From: an uncultured virus (IMG/VR IMGVR_UViG_2897137741_000002)
Lineage: Duplodnaviria; Heunggongvirae; Uroviricota; Caudoviricetes
Direction: 5' to 3' (one strand)
DNA length: 20,000 bases
IMG/VR virus record: IMGVR_UViG_2897137741_000002
Span: 117,587 to 137,586 of that record
Shown here: piece by piece, positions 4,167-20,000 of the stretch
Layout: each line of letters starts with the position of its first letter
Numbering within the stretch: position 1 is the first letter of the stretch
Translations under genes and position numbers: made by a program
Notes under the pieces: generated by a model
Seen by the model: only the letters and a program-made list of their open reading frames with translations
What the model was told of the DNA's origin: nothing
Database searches by the model: none

Positions 4167-4874
4167 TTGACAAAAATTTATGACGCAGCAAACTGGTCAA
4201 AGCATGAAGACGATTTTACCCAAATGTTCTATAACCAAAACGTGAAACAGTTCTGGCTTCCGGAAGAGATTGCTTTAAACGGCGATCTCCTCACATGGAA
4301 GTACCTCGGAAAAAATGAGCAGGACACTTATATGAAGGTACTGGCCGGACTTACGCTTCTTGAAAAACGTGAAACAGTTCTGGCTTCCGGAAGAGATTGC
4401 TTTAAACGGCGATCTCCTCACATGGAAGTACCTCGGAAAAAATGAGCAGGACACTTATATGAAGGTACTGGCCGGACTTACGCTTCTTGACACAGAGCAG
4501 GGGAATACGGGGATGCCGATCGTGGCTGAACACGTAGACGGCCACCAGCGGAAAGCGGTGCTGAACTTTATGGCCATGATGGAGAACGCTGTCCATGCGA
4601 AGTCGTACAGCAACATCTTTCTTACATTAGCTCCAACCGAGCAGATCAATGAAGTCTTCGAATGGGTGAAAAACAATAAATTTTTGCAAAAGAAAGCGGG
4701 AATAATTGTTTCAATCTATAAGTCAATTCAAAAAAACGATGACATTTCATTATTCAAAGGAATGGTTGCTTCTGTGTTCCTAGAGAGTTTTCTTTTCTAC
4801 TCAGGGTTTTATTATCCACTTTACTTTTACGGACAAGGAAAACTGATGCAAAGCGGTGAGATCATTAACCTGAT
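4167..4874 (+). CDS. nrdF: Ribonucleotide reductase class Ib beta subunit, exon 1 (frameshifted as assembled by a 127-bp duplication)
   Basis: AGGAG SD, TTG4167, [11 protein letters not shown]...QFWLPEEI...[10 protein letters not shown]...ESFLFYSGF. Removing one duplicate copy and the intron gives 329 aa. Confidence 0.9.
4237..4490 (+). repeat. Exact 127-bp tandem duplication (4237-4363 / 4364-4490)
   Basis: AAAACGTGAAACAG...ACGCTTCTTGA occurs twice back to back with period 127. Confidence 0.95.
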
Positions 4875-5682
4875 TATTTAATAGTCCCTTTTGTCGGCAA
4901 CGGCAAATGTGAACCTCTCTAATTGCTGGAAAATCCTTATTAGGACAATCAGCAGCGAAGCTATGCGAACCCAAAGGAGGTGAAAATGATAAGGAAAGAA
5001 GTCGAAGAAGCACCTTGGTGGATAACGGAAACGGGAGTTATCATATCAAAAAAAATAAAGAAACCAAGAAAGACATTTATTACTCCACATGGCTATGAAA
5101 TGATAGGATACACGCATCCGAAAAAAGGAACACAGAACTATTTAGTACATAGGTTAGTCGCAAAATATTTTATTCATGATATACCAAAAGGAATGTTTGT
5201 AAACCACATAGATGGAAATAAACTAAACAACCACGTTCGGAACTTAGAAATAGTTACACCTAAAGAAAATACTCTACATGCAATGAAAATTGGATTAATG
5301 TCAGGACAACCTGGAGAAAGTAATTCAATGTCAAAGCTCACTAATATGGAGGCAACAAATTTAATCTATGATTTGATTGCTGGAATGAACAATGTTGAAG
5401 CTGGTGAAAAATACAGCCTTCATCCTCGTTACGTTAGTCTAATTCGACATAAAAGAAGATGGAAGACTTTATGGGATCGCATAGAACGTTCAACGACTAT
5501 CGCATAGGCGGCGAAATTCCGCAAAACGAGTAGGGCGCAAGCTATTGGCGTGGGTGAGAACCCCTTAAATCGAAACGGGAGGCATCCTACAGGGATGATG
5601 ATATAGTCTGCTCCTTACGGTAACGTAAGGCGGTTGCGACAGGGCAACGAACCGATAGTAGCGAACTCGGTTGAACTAAGGG
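4875..5682 (+). ncRNA. Group I intron in nrdF (808 nt) carrying an HNH endonuclease
   Basis: Exon ends CTG AT, intron ends in G5682, and the next exon starts T ATT AGA GAC GAA, restoring [11 protein letters not shown]. Core-like AATCAGCAG and GATATAGTCT elements are present. Confidence 0.92.
4986..5507 (+). CDS. yosQ: Intron-encoded HNH homing endonuclease (YosQ-like, 173 aa)
   Basis: AAAGGAGGTGA SD, ATG4986. VHRLVA...[20 protein letters not shown] motif. Lies inside the intron. Confidence 0.92.
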
Positions 5683-6806: not shown

Positions 6807-7235
6807 ATGCAAATTAAAATCAAGTATCTAGATGAAACACAAACAAGAATCAGCAAAATTGAGCAGGGAGACTGGATTGATCTTCGTGCAGCTGAAGATG
6901 TAGTGATCAAAAAAGATGAGTTTAAACTTGTCCCATTAGGTGTGGCTATGGAATTGCCTGAAGGTTATGAAGCTCATGTCGTTCCTCGTTCGAGTACGTA
7001 TAAGAACTTTGGTGTGATTCAAACAAACTCAATGGGTGTTATCGATGAGTCTTATAAGGGAGACAACGATTTTTGGTTCTTTCCTGCTTATGCATTGCGT
7101 GATACTGAAATTAAGAAAGATGATCGTATCTGTCAGTTTAGAATCATGAAGAAAATGCCGGCGGTTGAATTGGTTGAAGTAGACTATCTAGGCAACGATG
7201 ACCGAGGTGGGCACGGTTCAACTGGAACGAAATAA
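6807..7235 (+). CDS. dut: Trimeric dUTPase (YosS-like)
   Basis: [24 protein letters not shown] and RGGHGSTG motifs; AAAGGAG SD. Confidence 0.95.
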
Positions 7236-8377: not shown

Positions 8378-8794
8378 ATGTTTATTATAGCGTATCTAAC
8401 TTTATTTCTAGCAGCTTATCTAATTGCATTAAACATTAATGAGGTCAGATTGATTATTCGAGGAGAAAGTGATACATATAGAAAAGTAAAGAGTGTGCTC
8501 GATAATTCAACTATTGAAAACGTGAAACGAAATAAGAATTTGATTTACCTGTTTACTTTGCTCAAGGGAATATCTTTCATTGTCCCTCTGGCTTATATTG
8601 GATTAGTTATGCACGATAACATCCTAATGCTTGCGTGGACAGCAGTTTCACTTATTTATGTTGTCCTTAGAATGTTCAAAGTTTTAGATGCATTAGAAGG
8701 TGAAAGAATCAAGCAAAACACATATTTTTACTTGTTATTTGTTTGTGGGAATTTTCTTTTTGTTGTATTTTATTTGGCAGATATATTCGTATAA
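8378..8794 (+). CDS. Predicted multi-pass membrane protein (start uncertain)
   Basis: About four hydrophobic segments. The AAGGAG SD abuts ATG8378, so ATT8384 or ATA8387 may be the true start. Confidence 0.75.
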
Positions 8795-8850
8795 AATATT
8801 TAATTAATGCTTTGCTTTTTCAAATACTATTTCCAAAAGGACTGAGAATC

Positions 8851-9690
8851 ATGACTCAATTCGATAAACAATACAGTTCAATCATAAATGACATTATAAA
8901 TAATGGAATCTCAGACGAAGAATTTCAAGTAAGAACAAAGTGGGACTCAGATGGAACACCGGCTCATACACTAAGCGTGATTAGTAAGCAAATGAGATTC
9001 GACAACTCAGAGGTTCCGATTTTAACGACAAAAAAAGTTGCCTGGAAAACAGCCATTAAAGAGTTGCTCTGGATTTGGCAGCTGAAATCTAATGATGTTA
9101 ATGATTTAAACAAGATGGGCGTACATATTTGGGATCAGTGGAAACAAGAAGACGGCACCATCGGACATGCATATGGATTTCAGCTGGGGAAGAAAAACAG
9201 AAGTCTAAATGGAGAAAAAGTGGATCAGGTAGACTATCTTCTTCATCAATTGAAGAACAACCCGTCTTCACGCAGACACATTACAATGCTGTGGAATCCT
9301 GATGATTTAGACTCAATGGCCTTAACGCCATGTGTATACGAAACTCAATGGTATGTTAAGCAAGGTAAGCTCCACCTCGAGGTAAGAGCACGGAGCAATG
9401 ATATGGCGTTGGGGAATCCATTCAATGTATTCCAGTACAATGTGTTGCAGCGCATGATTGCTCAAGTGACTGGTTATAAGCTTGGTGAATATATCTTTAA
9501 CATTGGGGATTGCCATGTGTACACACGTCATATAGACAATTTGAAAATTCAAATGGAAAGAGAACAGTTTGAAGCACCTGAACTATGGATCAATCCTGAA
9601 GTGAAAGATTTTTATCATTTTACAATCGATGATTTCAAATTAATCAACTATAAACATGGGGACAAGCTATTATTTGAGGTAGCGGTTTAA
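8851..9690 (+). CDS. thyA: Thymidylate synthase (ThyA/ThyP3 type, 279 aa)
   Basis: MTQFDKQY start after AAAAGGA; PSSRR, ALTPC, RSNDMALGNPFN and DCHVY motifs. Confidence 0.97.
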   Translation: MTQFDKQYSSIINDIINNGISDEEFQVRTKWDSDGTPAHTLSVISKQMRFDNSEVPILTTKKVAWKTAIKELLWIWQLKSNDVNDLNKMGVHIWDQWKQEDGTIGHAYGFQLGKKNRSLNGEKVDQVDYLLHQLKNNPSSRRHITMLWNPDDLDSMALTPCVYETQWYVKQGKLHLEVRARSNDMALGNPFNVFQYNVLQRMIAQVTGYKLGEYIFNIGDCHVYTRHIDNLKIQMEREQFEAPELWINPEVKDFYHFTIDDFKLINYKHGDKLLFEVAV

Positions 9691-10211
9691 TGCTATCTCT
9701 TATTGCTTGCTGTGATAAAACTCTGGCCATTGGACATCAAAACAAATTACTGTATCATGTGCCTGCTGACATGAAACATTTCAAAGAAAAAACTGAGGGG
9801 AAAATATGTATTCAAGGAAGATCAACATACGAATCAATTATCGGTATGACAGGTAAGCCTCTACAGAATAGAAGGAATATTATACTTACTAGGGATCAGA
9901 ACTTTAAGCCAGATTATTCATCCTTTGTGTATCATTCAATTGAGGAGGTCTTAAAGCTCATTCAAGGTCAAGTTAACACTGATGAGGAAGTGATGGTGAT
10001 AGGGGGAAGTATGATTTACAAAGCATTCTTGCCCTACGCTGATAAAGTGTATTTGACAATTGTTGATTCAGAGTCAAATGAAGCAGATTCATATTTCCCA
10101 ATGTTAGATGATCATTGGAAAGTGACTAATAAACAACATAATGAAGCCGATGAAAAGAACAAATACAATTATTCCTTCCTAACTTTTGAAAATAAATATA
10201 GACAAAAATAA
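9690..10211 (+). CDS. dfrA: Dihydrofolate reductase
   Basis: AIG..NKL, DMKHFK, GRSTYESI, PL.NRRNIILTR, VIGG..IY and ADSYFP motifs; TAATG coupling to thyA. Confidence 0.93.
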   Translation: MLSLIACCDKTLAIGHQNKLLYHVPADMKHFKEKTEGKICIQGRSTYESIIGMTGKPLQNRRNIILTRDQNFKPDYSSFVYHSIEEVLKLIQGQVNTDEEVMVIGGSMIYKAFLPYADKVYLTIVDSESNEADSYFPMLDDHWKVTNKQHNEADEKNKYNYSFLTFENKYRQK

Positions 10212-10335
10212 AAAATATGTATAATATAATAACAAGAGGTTGATGAAATAGCAGTTTTTTATTTAAAATACAAAAACAAAAAATATGCATTTTGATAAAA
10301 CTAATATTTTATTCAAACTTTAAGGAGGTGATTCA

Positions 10336-10698
10336 TTGGAGGCAGGAGACAAAATACATAACACCAACGAACAGATAAGAGTCTTAAAGGAAAAGAAATA
10401 TCAAATTGAAACAACATTACTTGAAAAACAGAGGGATCTTTTAAGACTTGAAACTCAGCAAAACAAAGAGAAGCTTGAATTCTTATTCGAGTTAAGCGAA
10501 GTCTTAACCCAATTGGAAGATGAAGAATGGGTAAGCTGCACGATTGCTTTACGAATTATTAGAAGAAATAAAAGAAAATACTTATATCTTTTTGATTTTA
10601 ATGATGACAAAGCATACATAAATAAGGATAAATTTAAAATTCTTCATGATGAATTCTTTGACCTGAAACAACAATTAAATGATATCTCAGGAGGCTGA
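10336..10698 (+). CDS. Hypothetical coiled-coil phage protein
   Basis: AAGGAGGTGA SD, TTG start, 120 aa. Confidence 0.85.
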
Positions 10699-10701
10699 AA
10701 A

Positions 10702-10998
10702 ATGAAAAATGTGAGTCAAACGGTAATCAATAATGCGAATACGGTATTTGAAAAGAAGGACGATAAATATTTTGGTTATAAGTCTCGTTTTGGAGATATC
10801 GTTATTGGGGGAGCATATTCATATAGATTTGTAGTTCACTACGCAAAAACGAATCAAGATGTTGTTATTATTCCTGGCGATGTGAATACGGTAACGACTC
10901 CGGTCTGTACGACACTAGAGGAACGTTTATGGCGGCCGGAGAAAAGCACACAAATACGCCGCGATGAGATCGTTGAGCAGGCAAAGGAGGACGAATAA
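10702..10998 (+). CDS. Hypothetical phage protein
   Basis: AGGAGG SD, 98 aa. Confidence 0.8.
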   Translation: MKNVSQTVINNANTVFEKKDDKYFGYKSRFGDIVIGGAYSYRFVVHYAKTNQDVVIIPGDVNTVTTPVCTTLEERLWRPEKSTQIRRDEIVEQAKEDE

Positions 10999-11220
10999 AT
11001 GAAACCAGAAAATTTACGGATTATAAAGGGGCATGGATGGTACAAAAATTTTGTAGGCCATGTTTATGAAATAGTAGAAGAAGATTTTATACAAGAAGCA
11101 TATTTGGTTAAAACTTGGTACACAACTGAAGACGACATAAGAATGAAATTGTGTGTAGTTTTTAAGGAAGACTGTGAAATTGAAATAAGTGAAAAAGTTG
11201 TCCAAGAAAGTGATTATTAA
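10999..11220 (+). CDS. Hypothetical phage protein
   Basis: AAAGGAGG SD; abuts the previous stop; 73 aa. Confidence 0.8.
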   Translation: MKPENLRIIKGHGWYKNFVGHVYEIVEEDFIQEAYLVKTWYTTEDDIRMKLCVVFKEDCEIEISEKVVQESDY

Positions 11221-11254
11221 ATAAAATCTGTATTTTAAAGAGAAAGGTGATTAA

Positions 11255-11377
11255 GTGAAAGAGTCGTTAAAGAATGACTTTCATGACTTCGTACATATTG
11301 CAAAAGATTTTCTGGCAGTATCTGGGGGAATCTTTTGGATTTTAATAATATTAATCTGTTTTTATGGAGGGAATTAG
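11255..11377 (+). CDS. 40-aa single-pass membrane peptide
   Basis: AGAAAGGTGA SD, GTG11255, MKESLKNDFHDFVHIAKDFLAVSGGIFWILIILICFYGGN. Not in the ORF track. Confidence 0.65.
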   Translation: MKESLKNDFHDFVHIAKDFLAVSGGIFWILIILICFYGGN

Positions 11378-11378
11378 G

Positions 11379-11579
11379 ATGAGCTTATTATTTAAGTTTG
11401 GTCTGATGAAATTGTCTCTGGAAAGTCTAGAGAGATTGAAAAACGATACGGAAAATAGAATTAAGGACGGATTACATAGTAACAATCAGACTTACATTGA
11501 AGACCAAACGAGAAAACATCAAGACATTTTAGACGAGTTAGCTAGGCGCAAGCAAACAGCTGTTGTGTATACGAAATAA
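11379..11579 (+). CDS. 66-aa hypothetical phage protein
   Basis: GGAGGG SD before ATG11379 (MSLLFKF...). Confidence 0.75.
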   Translation: MSLLFKFGLMKLSLESLERLKNDTENRIKDGLHSNNQTYIEDQTRKHQDILDELARRKQTAVVYTK

Positions 11580-11605
11580 AGGAGGAAAGAGGGGATTAAC
11601 CCCTC
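11580..11605 (-). terminator. Terminator hairpin for sspC (between convergent genes)
   Basis: GAGGGG-5nt-CCCCTC stem (11589-11605), followed on the minus strand by TTTCCTCCTTT. Confidence 0.6.
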
Positions 11606-11612
11606 ATGAAAA

Positions 11613-11831
11613 TTAATGAAATTGCCCGCCCATATTTTGTTGTGCTAAGCGAACTAAACGTTTAGTGATTTCTCCACCAACTGAACCGTTTGCACGAGAA
11701 GTAGTCTCAGCGCCTAATTGAACACCAAACTCAGAAGCTATTTCAAGTTTCATTTGTTCAATAGCTGAAGCTGCTTGAGGAACTAATAACTCATTATTGT
11801 TGTTTGATCTTGATCTGTTTTGTTGAGGCAT
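11613..11831 (-). CDS. sspC: Alpha/beta-type small acid-soluble spore protein (72 aa)
   Basis: [34 protein letters not shown] signature; AGGAG SD before ATG11831. Confidence 0.96.
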
Positions 11832-11877
11832 CTTATTCATCTCCTAAAGTGTAATGAAAACAAGCTTGTTTGAATCA

Positions 11878-11906
11878 TATTATGGAGAGATTATTTTAAT
11901 TTATAC
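11878..11906 (-). promoter_or_regulatory. sigmaG-type forespore promoter of sspC
   Basis: Minus strand GTATA-17nt-CATAATA. Confidence 0.75.
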
Positions 11907-11948
11907 ACACCAAAGATATAAATTTTCATTAAGGAAGGTGGAGACAAA

Positions 11949-12776
11949 ATGAAAATCGATTATGTATCAGATCTCCATATTAATCATTGGATTCCCTGGA
12001 ATGTGAATCAGATTAAGTGGGAGAAGAGAACAAGGGAAATCGTAAATAGGTTAATTTCAAATGGTAATGGAGAGGTATTGATCATTGCCGGTGATTTTAC
12101 TGAATGGAATCAACAAACATTATGGGTTTTGGATGAGGCAGCAAAGCAATACGAGAAGGTTTACTTTACATATGGAAATCATGATCTTTACTTACTTAGC
12201 AAGAGCCAAAAAAGAAAATACTCAGACTCAATAGGCAGGTTGAATGATCTAATCAAAAAAGCTGCGGACATAAATAAAGTAACTCCTTTAATTAAGACAA
12301 CTGATACATACAAAGGTAAAGTTTTTGCAGGAGATGTTATGTGGTACCTACCAAAAGGAATTGAAGGATGGGATTTCTATAGAGGGGTGTCAAATGATTC
12401 TAATTACATTTCCATTAATGGATACAGCAAAGAAGATGGAGTAAGAGCAATGTGGAAAGAATCAATGGATTGGTATGAAACGCTTGAAAACACCCAAGTT
12501 GATGTTTTTGTTTCTCATGTTCCACCTGTTCACAATCCTTATTCCCCGTTTGAGCCAAACAGCTGCTATATGGTTGATGTCCCATTCATTAACGCAAAAC
12601 ATTGGATTTGTGGCCATGACCATTTACAAGCTGAATTTGACAAAGAGGGAACAAGCTTTCACATGAATTGTATCGGATACCCGTATGACTACGATAATTA
12701 TCCTTGCGTCAATGTGATACCAGGAAATGAAGTAGATTCATATAAAACATTTGAACTTAAAACATTCGAGATTTAG
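11949..12776 (+). CDS. yotB: Calcineurin-like metallophosphoesterase (YotB-like)
   Basis: SDLH, AGD, GNHD, SHVPP and GHDH motifs; 275 aa. Confidence 0.92.
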
Positions 12777-15682: not shown

Positions 15683-16282
15683 TTGGGAGCAAACAATCAA
15701 GGGAAAGTTTTTGAAGCGAACATTGAAAAATCAGCAGCAGATCAGAAGCTGTTCTTCTACAGGATTAAAGATGTTAATCCAATGTTCTTGAAAAGAGGGG
15801 CAGCAGTATCAAAAAACAAATATGATTGCTTTCTGTTCTTTAAGGGGTACTTGTTTCCTTTTGAGCTTAAATCAACAAAGGACAAGTCTATTGCATTTCG
15901 AGAAGAAATTATAAAGGCACAACAGATAAAACACTTAAAAGAGGCAACTCAATACCCGAACATAATTCCTGGCTTTCTGTTTCAATTTAGAGAGCCGGAA
16001 AACAAAGTTTATTTCGTACATATTAATGATTTCCTTACATATAAGAACATAGCTGAAAAACAGTTGAAACATACATATAAGAATAAAGTAAACAAAGCCA
16101 GTATTCCGATTGCGATTTGTGAAGAAATCGGTACTGAAGTGCGCTCGATGAAAAAGAAAGTGAATTATACATATTATCTAAACAAACTTTGCGATGATTT
16201 GATAAAGAAATCCAAGTTATTGGACAACCCACTTAATTCATACATTGATGACAAGTCATCTATGGGAGTGGTGCATCAATGA
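15683..16282 (+). CDS. yotM: RecU-like Holliday junction resolvase (YotM-like)
   Basis: NQGKVFE, YD...FELKST PD-(D/E)xK motif and QQIKHL; AGGAG SD, TTG start. Confidence 0.85.
   Translation: MGANNQGKVFEANIEKSAADQKLFFYRIKDVNPMFLKRGAAVSKNKYDCFLFFKGYLFPFELKSTKDKSIAFREEIIKAQQIKHLKEATQYPNIIPGFLFQFREPENKVYFVHINDFLTYKNIAEKQLKHTYKNKVNKASIPIAICEEIGTEVRSMKKKVNYTYYLNKLCDDLIKKSKLLDNPLNSYIDDKSSMGVVHQ
16216..16246 (+). promoter_or_regulatory. Candidate sigmaE (mother-cell) promoter upstream of the putative RDF
   Basis: GTTATT-17nt-CATACATT. The -10 matches sigmaE CATACAnT; the -35 is imperfect. Confidence 0.5.
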
Positions 16283-16425
16283 GCAAAAGAAGAGAATGCG
16301 CAGAAAACTATAAGGTAACCACAGTTATTAATCAGGATGTAGAAAATTGGGTTGAAGAGGTGATATCAACTAAAGAATTTTATGATTTTGCAGCTACATT
16401 AATGTACAAGTATAAAAAAGCATAA
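16279..16425 (+). CDS. 48-aa candidate recombination directionality factor (SprB-equivalent position)
   Basis: GGGAG SD, ATGA overlap with the yotM-like gene; MSKRRECAENYKVTTVINQDVENWVEEVISTKEFYDFAATLMYKYKKA. Function inferred from synteny only. Confidence 0.6.
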   Translation: MSKRRECAENYKVTTVINQDVENWVEEVISTKEFYDFAATLMYKYKKA

Positions 16426-16431
16426 GGTAAA

Positions 16432-16465
16432 ACAAGTATACCTGTTTTTCCCATGGTATACTTGT
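16432..16465 (+). promoter_or_regulatory. 11-bp perfect inverted repeat containing an extended -10, upstream of the recombinase
   Basis: ACAAGTATACC (16432-16442), 12-nt spacer, GGTATACTTGT (16455-16465); TGgTATACT at 16454-16462. Confidence 0.6.
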
Positions 16466-16513
16466 GCTTATATACAGACATAAAAGATAAAGCAATATGG
16501 AGGTTATGATCTA

Positions 16514-18214
16514 TTGCTTATATTAAAGGGAGATCAAAAGCTAAGTACGGACAATATAATGCATTTGATTGGCAAAATTAATGCATTGATTTATGCCAGA
16601 GTATCAACAACAGATCAAGCTAATAAGGGTTTTTCAATTGAGTCACAAATAGAAAGGTGTAAAGAAAGAGCAATCTCTAAATTTGGATACAAGGAAAGCG
16701 AAATAATTGCGTTAGTTGAACCGGGGGGCATGGGAGATGATCCAAACCGGCCAGCTCTTAATCACGCCTTATATTTATTAGAAAAAGGACTAGGAAAAAA
16801 ATTCATAGTATTACACCCAGATCGTCTAACTAGAGATAACACCTTACAGGGTGTGGTATCAAGAAGAATATGGGGTATGGGTGTTGATATCGAGTTTATT
16901 GAATTTGAAGTAAATCCTCATGATCCTGAATCAATGCTGATGTACAACATTCAAGGTTCAATTGCACAGTACAATAAGGCGAAAATTCATGCTAACTCAA
17001 AGCGAGGAAGATTGGCTAAAGCAAAGAAAGGTGAATTTCCTTCATTTAAAAGGTTGTATGGGTACAAATTTAATACAGTGACAGATCTTCCTGAGTATAA
17101 CGAAGAAGAAAAAGAAATATTGCTTGAAATGAAGGATATGCTCTTAAACAAAAAAATGTCCTCGAATGAAATTGCTAAAGAACTTTCAAGAAGGGGAGTT
17201 GCTGCTCCTAACGGAAAGACTTGGTATCAGGCAACTGTAAGTAGAATGTTGCAGAATGAAGATTACACAGGTGATTTTTATTATGGAAAGTCAAAAGTTG
17301 TTCAAATTAACGGTAAGAAGAAACAGGTGCCGACAAACAAAGACGAATGGATATTGATAAAGATTCCTCCAATGTGGGATAAAGCTACACGAGAGCAAAT
17401 CATTGAGCGATTGAAGAGCAACTTTAAGGGAAGAAGTCGAGCTACTAAAGACTATTTGCTGAAAAACAAGGCGAAATGTGGTCGTTGTGGAGGGGCATGT
17501 GGCTCAGGAATAACTTCTAAAACTAAATCAGGCGTATATAAGTATTATTCTTGTAGAGCAAAGACTGCAAAAGGATATCAAAATGGCAAGAAAGTTGTTT
17601 CATGTGAAGGTAAGAAATGGAGAGTCGATATCGTTGATGAAGTTTTTTGGAACTGGTTTATAAAACTCCTGAAGAATCCAGAGAAATTTCTAGAATCATT
17701 TTTAGAGGAAGCGTCTGATCAAAAGAAAATCGATGAACTCAAAGCAAAAGCAAGTCGACTAGAAAAACAACTCGGTGAGATAGATGAAGAAATAGCAAAT
17801 TATGTAATTCTTTTTGGGAAAGGGAAAATTAAAGAAAGTATGTTCGACCAACTGTCTCAGCCATTGGAACAGAACAAAGAGCATATTGAGAATGAGATTA
17901 AAATAATTAATTCACAATTGGCTGCAAATAAACAAACTGAAGACAAAAAACAAAAAATGATCGAGTATATTGGCTCGTTCTCTAAAATGATTAAAAATGA
18001 AATTACAATAGAAGAAAAACGGCAATTCCTTGATTTCTTCATTGAAAAAGTAACTCTGTTTGATGATGATCATATGGAAGTTGTATGGAAAAGTTCTTCA
18101 CTTAATAATGAAAACAGCCATGTGGATTTTCTTAACGGCGAGCAGGGAGGGGAGTTTATAAACTCGCATAAAAGACTAAACCATATTCAAGCATATGGAA
18201 GACAAACAGCATGA
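16514..18214 (+). CDS. Large serine recombinase (prophage integrase, SprA-like)
   Basis: YARVST catalytic Ser, DRLTR, LYGY recombinase domain, CGRCG...YYSC...C zinc ribbon and coiled coil; GGAGG SD, TTG start. Confidence 0.96.
   Translation: MLILKGDQKLSTDNIMHLIGKINALIYARVSTTDQANKGFSIESQIERCKERAISKFGYKESEIIALVEPGGMGDDPNRPALNHALYLLEKGLGKKFIVLHPDRLTRDNTLQGVVSRRIWGMGVDIEFIEFEVNPHDPESMLMYNIQGSIAQYNKAKIHANSKRGRLAKAKKGEFPSFKRLYGYKFNTVTDLPEYNEEEKEILLEMKDMLLNKKMSSNEIAKELSRRGVAAPNGKTWYQATVSRMLQNEDYTGDFYYGKSKVVQINGKKKQVPTNKDEWILIKIPPMWDKATREQIIERLKSNFKGRSRATKDYLLKNKAKCGRCGGACGSGITSKTKSGVYKYYSCRAKTAKGYQNGKKVVSCEGKKWRVDIVDEVFWNWFIKLLKNPEKFLESFLEEASDQKKIDELKAKASRLEKQLGEIDEEIANYVILFGKGKIKESMFDQLSQPLEQNKEHIENEIKIINSQLAANKQTEDKKQKMIEYIGSFSKMIKNEITIEEKRQFLDFFIEKVTLFDDDHMEVVWKSSSLNNENSHVDFLNGEQGGEFINSHKRLNHIQAYGRQTA
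18170..18205. other. Prophage-host junction (attR relative to spoVK orientation), crossover near 18187-18190
   Basis: SpoVK residues K-H-M-E-D begin at AAG18189. Upstream codons do not fit the recalled SpoVK sequence (...DTLV). GC content rises downstream. The exact crossover dinucleotide cannot be determined here. Confidence 0.75.
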
Positions 18215-18605
18215 GTTTATTTTGATACTCGCCGGATATTCACGGGAAATGGATCATTTTCTCTCGTTAAATCCCGGTCTCCAATCAAGATTTCCCATTT
18301 CCATTGATTTTCCGGATTACTCTGTGACACAGCTCATGGAGATTGCGAAACGAATGATCGATGAAAGGGAATACCAGCTCAGTCAAGAAGCTGAATGGAA
18401 ATTGAAAGATTACTTAATGACAGTGAAAAGCACGACAAGTCCCATTAAATTCAGCAATGGACGTTTTGTCAGAAATGTGATCGAAAAATCGATCAGAGCA
18501 CAAGCCATGAGGCTTTTAATGGGAGACCAATACTTAAAAAGCGACTTGATGACCATCAAAAGCCAAGATCTTTCCATTAAAGAAGAAGCATCTGGATCTG
18601 CATAG
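18189..18605 (+). pseudogene. spoVK: 3' half of spoVK (AAA+ sporulation ATPase), split by the prophage
   Basis: ILAGY..EMD.FL..NPGL.SRF...IDFPDYS and FSNGRFVRN motifs of the SpoVK/CbbX family. Walker A and B are absent. Upstream of hflX as in B. subtilis. Confidence 0.93.
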
Positions 18606-18737: not shown

Positions 18738-20000
18738 TTGAACGAACAAGAAACGATTCAGGAGAAAGCCATTTTAGTCGGATGTCAGCTGCCGCATATC
18801 ACGGATGAGCATTTTGAAAATTCTATGGAAGAGCTAGCATCTCTGACGAAAACAGCAGACGGAAAAGTACTGACCAGCGTCACACAAAAACGGAACAGGG
18901 CTGACGCCGCTACATATATAGGAAAAGGGAAGGTAGAAGAGCTGAAGGCACTGGTGGAAGAGCTTGAAGCTGATCTCCTCATCTTTAATGATGAACTGTC
19001 GCCAAGTCAGCTGAAGTCATTGGCAACAGCAATTGAAGTGAAGATGATTGACCGCACGCAATTGATATTAGATATTTTTGCAAAGCGGGCGAGAACGAGA
19101 GAAGGCAAACTTCAAATTGAGCTGGCTCAGCTGCAATATGCACTGCCGCGTCTGACGGGACAAGGGATCAACCTTTCCCGGCAAGGCGGTGGAATTGGGG
19201 CAAGAGGTCCCGGGGAAACGAAACTGGAAACCGACCGCCGCCATATCAGAAATCGCATTCATGAAATCAACACACAGCTTTCCACTGTCATTCGCCATAG
19301 AAGCCGATACCGTGAAAGAAGAAAGAAAAACGGTGTGCTTCAAATTGCGCTTGTCGGCTATACAAACGCAGGGAAATCAACATGGTTCAACCGTCTGACG
19401 AGTGCTGACAGCTATGAAGAAGACCTCCTGTTTGCCACGCTCGATCCGATGACCAGAAAAATGGTCCTGCCAAGCGGCTACAGTGTTCTTCTATCAGATA
19501 CAGTAGGATTTATTCAGGATCTTCCGACGACATTGATTGCTGCATTCCGCTCAACGCTTGAGGAAGTAAAAGAAGCGGATTTAATTCTGCATTTAATTGA
19601 TTCTTCAAATGAGGATTATGTGGGACATGAAAAAACAGTGCTTCGGCTGCTTGAGGAGCTTGAAGCAGATGATATCCCGATGCTGACGGCTTACAATAAA
19701 CGTGATCAAAAACTGCCTGATTTTATACCGTCCGCCGGAAGGGATCACATTATGGTCAGTGCGAAATTTGAGGACGACGCTGAAATCTTTAAAGAAGCGA
19801 TTCAGCGCTATTTGCGCCAAGAACTGTTAACGTCTTTTGAAGCACATGTGCCGGCAAGTGAAGGGAAGCTCCTTTCCAGAATCAAATCGGAAACGATGGT
19901 AGACCGCTTCTATTTTAATGAAGAAAATGAACAGTATGACATATCCGGCTATGTCCAAGAAGAGCAAAGTATCATCGGTGAATTAAAGAAGTATATGTAG
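18738..20000 (+). CDS. hflX: GTPase HflX (YnbA), 420 aa
   Basis: AGAAAGGA SD, TTG18738; [31 protein letters not shown] and NKRD motifs; stop TAG at 19998-20000. Confidence 0.97.

Follow-up and report, generated by a model that had tools for sequence, protein, structure and literature searches.

In the SprA/SprB-type unit, the recombination directionality factor binds at the junction of the zinc domain and the coiled coil of the integrase and switches the direction of recombination. Large serine integrases that split a mother-cell gene include SprA/SprB of SPbeta at spsM, the phi3T integrase at kamA and SpoIVCA/Skr of the skin element, and the integrase described here, inserted in spoVK, resembles them in this respect. 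Unlike in SPbeta, where sprA and sprB lie at opposite prophage ends with attP between them, integrase and candidate factor are here at one end and attP lies within the integrase gene. The integrase itself is about 19–20% identical to that of SPbeta.

An integrase gene split by its own att site has already been published for phage Goe14 (Kohm et al., bioRxiv 10.1101/2021.11.22.469490). The authors speculated that the long form serves integration and the short form excision, described the tail as unlike any known structure and saw no equivalent of sprB (10.1101/2021.11.22.469490). The locus analyzed here is essentially the same system, with 99.7% identical DNA, the AAG core, the 693-residue form, its truncation and a split-off ORF of 97 residues. 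Compared with the preprint, the tail is here predicted to be a tandem helix-turn-helix (HTH) and a positional candidate for sprB is present; the two observations on which the published guess leans, no known fold and no sprB equivalent, are therefore both questioned. Goe14 lysogens are inducible, and the integrase is not treated in the accessible part of that report (Floccari et al., PMC12361552). No experimental test of the two integrase forms was found in the literature covered, from which subscription journals were mostly absent. With a tandem-HTH tail and a candidate factor, the switch becomes directly testable in Bacillus subtilis with Goe14 and SPR. It also bears on the restoration of spoVK in lysogens, a gene needed for sporulation (PMC517825).

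The arrangement recalls the integration-dependent immunity of mycobacteriophage BPs, in which attP lies in a gene and integration shortens the C-terminus, altering the product (PMC4557955). In BPs, the gene in question is that of the repressor, which loses 33 residues including an ssrA-like tag and is active in its short form (PMC4557955); here, in contrast, the gene encodes the integrase, a folded HTH pair is predicted to be lost, and in one relative a separate HTH gene contains attP. Attaching a C-terminal domain through a flexible linker can alter integrase direction, as in a fusion of the SPbeta integrase with its directionality factor (PMC11722253). Nevertheless, engineered fusions of this kind excise (Olorunniji 2017; PMC11722253), whereas the fused form here belongs to the state that must integrate.

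The integrase gene at the spoVK junction

The window, a stretch of 20,000 nucleotides, is the final 20 kb of a 137,586-base record that holds a complete SPbeta-like prophage with host flanks, and it covers the right prophage end, inserted in spoVK (Table 1). As the preliminary description had stated, the integrase ORF is open through the phage/host boundary: it runs for 566 codons, ends in ...NHIQAYGRQTA and stops at TGA (18212–18214). Three Pfam integrase domains scored above cut-off, and the protein is a large serine integrase with a resolvase catalytic domain, a recombinase domain, a zinc ribbon and a coiled coil.

Table 1. Features of the recombination cassette and its surroundings (positions in the window unless another sequence is named)
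Feature	Position	Strand	Remarks
yotM / RecU-like resolvase	15683..16282	+	last conserved SPbeta gene before the recombination cassette
mother-cell (sigmaE/sigmaK-type) promoter-like motif	16223..16246	+	-10-like box 16239-16246; putative function
48-aa ORF, candidate recombination directionality factor	16279..16425	+	position of sprB
11-bp perfect inverted repeat over extended -10-like box	16432..16465	.	TG 16454-16455, TATACT 16457-16462
attP half-site-like box	16479..16496	+	between putative promoter and integrase ribosome-binding site; 14/18 identical to att arm
large serine integrase, prophage form, 566 aa	16514..18214	+	PF00239, PF07508, PF13408
phage arm of attR (= left arm of attP)	18167..18188	+	also codes integrase residues 552-559
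att core AAG	18189..18191	.	crossover dinucleotide AA 18189-18190; annotated attachment site in Goe14; intact-spoVK contigs join here
spoVK 3' part, host	18192..18605	+	TIGR02881 positions 137-261; rebuilt gene intact
hflX, host	18738..20000	+	context; TIGR03156 above cut-off
spoVK 5' part + split-off integrase tail	contig about 6423-7381		other prophage end, outside window
97-aa annotated ORF = split-off integrase tail	L006 2089-2382		

When 50,697 phage records were searched with the window DNA, five matched at 99.4–99.9% (SPR, SPbetaL2, BUCT082, BUCT083 and Goe14), and in all five the match ended at 18191. Each of these records stays in frame to give 693 residues, with 134 residues after Q559 versus 7 in the window. 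The phage continuation after 18191 is on the same contig as the window, where it was located at position 6978, immediately 3' of the spoVK 5' part. Rejoining the prophage ends in silico at the common AAG yielded a 693-residue integrase, which differs from the SPR integrase by one residue (start codon aside), and an unbroken SpoVK of 322 residues. The five phage records and the rebuilt ends bear out two earlier proposals, that the att site lies within the integrase gene and that the excised circle gives a different C-terminus. Locating attL, rebuilding attP and translating the tail, as had been suggested, returned the 693-residue form with a tail unlike that of the prophage. The prophage form consists of 559 shared and seven host-coded residues, AYGRQTA, the first 23 bases of the spoVK 3' part being read out of frame as tail and stop. 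The earlier ascription of the last codons, QAYGRQTA, to out-of-frame spoVK holds for AYGRQTA and the TGA but has to be corrected for Q559, which is phage-coded. The locus has the AAG core, the attP within the integrase gene and the 693-residue circular form of the Goe14-type spoVK integrase. Two integrase isoforms are fixed by the recombination state, and each state can encode just one.

The phage arm and the other arm (contig 6977–6998) are complementary at 17 of 22 bases, so that the rebuilt attP is a 17/22 inverted repeat centered on the AA dinucleotide, compared with only 5/22 for attB. A symmetric attP with a central dinucleotide and a short core fits the att pattern of large serine integrases. 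Contigs from RNA runs spanned the prophage junction in three of four runs, the fourth lacking coverage of the junction, and in three of four runs other contigs joined intact spoVK at 18187–18189. The latter confirm the position of the junction, and may stem from excision, mixed cultures or DNA. None of the contigs of the four runs showed an attP-type loose end. A crossover 3' of 18214 was ruled out by the phage match ends, the phage continuation on the contig and the RNA-run contigs. At attL of related loci, the spoVK fragment stops three codons past the junction in 12 of 23 other loci, with the stop within the att arm; here it continues for 28 codons.

The circle-encoded tail and its distribution

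In the model of the 693-residue form, the resolvase, recombinase, zinc-ribbon and coiled-coil domains are complete by about residue 530. The model aligns with the SPbeta integrase over residues 20–526 (Z 17.2, 471 aligned, rmsd 21), and the linker at 529–565 is predicted to be disordered (pLDDT <50). The tail of 134 residues is predicted to fold as two HTH motifs connected through a long helix (pLDDT 93–97). Both forms are thus modeled to retain all parts required for catalysis and to differ by a probable DNA-binding module.

Pfam Sigma70_r4 was matched by 9 of 20 tails at E 0.01 or better (best E 2.5e-9), while the window's own tail scored 19.5, below the cut-off of 24.1. A profile search with the tail recovered 2,196 proteins at E 0.001; of 36 scanned, taken from 150 listed of these 2,196, HTH families were present in 33, mostly as arrays. 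Fold searching returned generic HTH matches (Tn3 resolvase, Tc3 transposase HTH) at Z about 5, the best being weak at 5.3, and no viral match at E 0.001. The tail has the predicted fold and the sequence pattern of DNA-binding proteins, which suggests that it would bind DNA. No DNA site for it was identified, and the region 3' of the tail stop codon showed no conserved motif.

The 97-residue ORF is intact and lies 24 bases past the stop of the spoVK fragment; it was called on 107 contigs. Tail codons 8–36, which lie 5' of its Met and are translatable only from attP, showed pN < pS in seven of seven comparisons, all of which share the window's sequence. Neither a start codon nor a ribosome-binding site is conserved among 17 tails, one of which is without a start codon in its first 60 codons. 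Taken together, these findings suggest that the fused, circle-encoded product is the one under selection.

Among the 120 homologues listed, by which lengths and tails were classed, 92 have 520–625 residues, and 63 of these end in spoVK read out of frame. Another 22 have at least 630 residues, including 18 that carry the tail and are natural long forms. Thirty-seven genome loci were collected and 33 genomes searched; a separate tail match was present in at least 17 among the matches listed, of which 16 tail loci were examined, the 17th tail lying in the Heliobacterium chlorum locus described below. The tail was found directly 3' of the spoVK 5' part in all 16 genomes. The rebuilt attP frame was open in 12 of the 16 other genomes, giving tails of 127–142 residues. 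As exceptions, the tail is cut at 82 residues in L046, L019 combines a cut tail with an integrase that ends 11 codons early, a metagenome-assembled genome (L049) has a frameshift in the linker, and the tail is a separate gene in L036. The arrangement recurs across Bacillales: hosts include Bacillus, Metabacillus, Paenibacillus and Alicyclobacillus, with integrase identity of about 40%. A serine integrase does not require an att site within its own gene, and the position and phase of att in the integrase gene are the same in distant relatives; the placement is therefore not due to chance. The host-coded ends look incidental since their lengths vary from 4 to 117 residues. In wider genome samples, a tail match was seen in 5 of 401 (two strong), 1 of 71 and 4 of 49 genomes, so that the tail family is sparse in the genomes searched. 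Five unpaired loci were also searched for a tail; none was found, with two weak matches in long ORFs.

Seven small elements of 3.1–15 kb, not phage-sized, encode integrases of 528–564 residues with the catalytic motif kept, and none has the tail. A profile search of the whole genomes holding them gave no tail in five of five (two of the seven genomes were left out). Tail loss occurred at least four separate times according to a quick tree. Among elements that could be sized, the fusion is kept in six of six above 100 kb and in one of three of 26–35 kb. The tail would be dispensable for excision, provided that the small elements are still able to excise and so restore spoVK. Several tail-less elements have kept a small upstream ORF with a promoter-like motif.

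In the B. pseudomycoides prophage (L036), the integrase ends at 546 residues. A second frame starts 73 bases upstream of att, at an ATG preceded by a strong ribosome-binding site, and reads across attP into an intact tail. Two database proteins, P0155 and P0169, look like free tail forms, their genomic surroundings being unseen; the separate-gene arrangement is thus represented by one genome and two proteins. The conserved feature thus appears, from these sequences, to be an HTH product, fused or free, whose production requires attP. Four Paenibacillus genomes (L033, L034, L037 and L039, about 10001–12000) carry a permanently fused long form with a shortened att linker, and have an intact spoVK elsewhere, far from the fused integrase.

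Further arrangements were noted among the loci. In Heliobacterium chlorum (L040, 9069–11875), the spoVK 5' part and a tail are followed at once by an integrase fused to a second tail, which looks like a tandem or collapsed element. One 15-kb spoVK element (L044, 10001–19009) has two integrase copies. In L020 (4454–5293), L035 (4942–5730) and L041 (7777–8688), an intact spoVK-like gene is found no more than about 5 kb from the integrase; apparently inside the splitting element, it is possibly a replacement copy.

A candidate directionality factor and putative promoters

The yotM product is 90.9% identical to SPbeta yotM over residues 1–187 (TIGR00648 recU, E 8e-9, below cut-off). Directly after yotM, as sprB in SPbeta, lies the ORF of 48 residues, which is 100% identical in the five spoVK-type phages. 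Its position upstream of the integrase is also that of skr in the skin element (Suzuki et al., PMC6957869). In most relatives, several tail-less ones included, a small ORF of similar size precedes the integrase, and by eye these share a strand-then-helix pattern. BLAST gave no alignment of the 48-residue ORF with SprB, and searches returned no useful PDB, NCBIfam or Atlas match. A profile of 12 relatives scored 3.1 bits against SprB, with 11 of 200 shuffles as high, and 6.8 bits against the phi3T ORF in the equivalent position, with 0 of 200 as high. For the upstream ORFs of distant loci, two or fewer of 200 shuffles scored as high in 5 of 13. Known directionality factors are dissimilar between phi3T and SPbeta (Suzuki et al., PMC6957869) and share no fold according to Shin et al. 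(PMC12286644); lack of likeness to SprB therefore counts little either way.

The DNA before the 48-residue ORF aligns with the DNA before SPbeta sprB, with GACAA and CATA-n-A in common. Abe et al. (PMC4191935) placed the sporulation start of sprB 20 nt upstream of its start codon and downstream of a sigmaE/K -10 box, in agreement with the -10-like box aligned here. Within 400 bases of the integrase, the motif occurs in 17 of 35 loci versus 1.84 expected; the pattern was picked after the sequences had been viewed, the loci are related, and in some the motif overlaps yotM codons. In two RNA runs of one study, contigs begin at 16274–16289 with no cover upstream, although contigs cannot show starts. 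Since the ORF occupies the sprB position behind a sprB-like mother-cell motif, a conventional directionality factor probably exists, and the ORF is assigned by position as the candidate.

The inverted repeat upstream of the integrase covers a possible integrase promoter, read by eye against sigma-factor consensus sequences. A sigma-70 scan around the cassette gave 7 sites, fewer than the 12.4 in shuffles, and this box was absent from them. The half-site-like box that follows might permit autoregulation as a weak, possible operator. A box of this kind before the integrase reached p<0.05 in 6 of 18 loci, and that of the window was absent from the 20 best att-like sites of the whole prophage.

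Role of the two integrase forms

With a rough probability of 0.55, attP gates a DNA-binding module available only to the circle, the short form excises together with the 48-residue factor, and the tail aids integration or regulates. Integration at spoVK cuts the integrase gene: the free phage encodes 693 residues including the tandem-HTH tail, and the prophage encodes a complete integrase of 566 residues with no tail. The att site would then act as an on/off gate, the module being made from the circular genome alone. In the free-phage phase, the module might be an accessory DNA binder assisting attP × attB recombination, might control promoters of the integrase cassette or other phage genes, or both. 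Excision would be carried out by the short form with a conventional factor. For restoring spoVK, this factor would be made in the mother cell from the sprB-like promoter; upon induction, it would come from the phage operon upstream. The seven host-coded residues would be incidental. The permanently fused Paenibacillus long forms are left unexplained by such a circle-only module.

Kohm et al. would instead have the long form integrate and the short form excise, either without any separate factor or by means of a tail that physically blocks the factor site; the preliminary description had likewise considered a switch of directionality. That each state encodes one form only agrees with their proposal. 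A tail strand at 568–572 in the full-length model, which is coil in a model of the tail by itself, hints at docking on the integrase body, and Shin et al. speculate that C-terminal extensions may block the factor site (PMC12286644); tail loss in the small elements would also be compatible. Nevertheless, the docking strand has a pLDDT of just 50–64, a candidate factor with a sprB-like promoter is present, and a tail encoded by a separate gene cannot act as a covalent latch. Moreover, if excision were followed by synthesis of a long form resistant to the factor, spoVK would be expected to be broken again; in SPbeta, SprB prevents re-integration in the mother cell (PMC5499854). A directionality switch between isoforms is accordingly regarded as unlikely. 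Still less probable is that attP simply fell in a gene with a dispensable tail and that both forms behave alike. The integrase fold is complete ahead of the att site, four of 16 paired genomes have a broken frame or a broken or separate tail, and the seven small elements have no tail, but the losses cluster in the latter, while frame and tail sequence are kept across about 40% integrase identity with pN < pS.

The split-off ORF of 97 residues might itself be the working product, a free regulator or an excision trigger expressed in the lysogen from the spoVK sporulation promoters, of which sigmaE and sigmaK types are described (PMC517825). Its intactness close behind the spoVK fragment and its many annotations are in keeping with such a role, which is nonetheless very unlikely given the unconserved start and ribosome-binding site, selection that reaches upstream of its Met, and its absence from the small elements. 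Least credible is a degron switch, with one C-terminus targeting the integrase for proteolysis. The preliminary description had drawn this analogy from mycobacteriophages; in BPs, attP in the repressor gene removes an ssrA-like tag (PMC4557955), and the prophage tail of the window does end in Ala. Comparison of tails across relatives, the check then suggested, revealed no C-terminus shared in either the prophage or the circular forms and thus no conserved ssrA-like tag. Prophage tails span the full range of lengths given above, and of the 92 short homologues, 63 have the spoVK-derived motif, their last two residues being scattered (GR 11, TA 5, GG 5 and others). Thirteen long forms end in unrelated residues, and what is predicted to be lost is a folded tandem HTH.

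More tentatively, and with appreciable doubt, the circle-only module may be extended to a Bacillales-wide family of serine integrases in which the crossover serves as a state sensor and a circle-only tandem-HTH regulator, joined to the integrase in most members and encoded by a free gene spanning attP in some, drives circle-specific behavior. That regulator might then govern a burst of integration upon infection, or decide between re-integration and lytic growth. Such an integrase would disarm its own integration aid by integrating, a mirror image of integration-dependent immunity. A tail that is a circle-only integration aid or regulator would represent a new kind of phage self-state sensing and a ready design for one-shot integrases.

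Elsewhere in the window, a group I intron (Rfam RF00028) lies at 2222–2474 in an nrdE-like gene. An exact 127-bp tandem duplication at 4237–4490, in the 5' part of the phage nrdF-like gene, splits that gene into two ORFs and is either a real lesion or an assembly slip; the same gene is interrupted at 4980–5507 by an ORF that is endonuclease-like by eye, with no NCBIfam match. Thymidylate synthase and dihydrofolate reductase (below every resistance-gene cut-off shown) are encoded at 8743–10211. Together with a small acid-soluble spore protein gene at 11613–11840, presumably sspC, they are usual SPbeta cargo.
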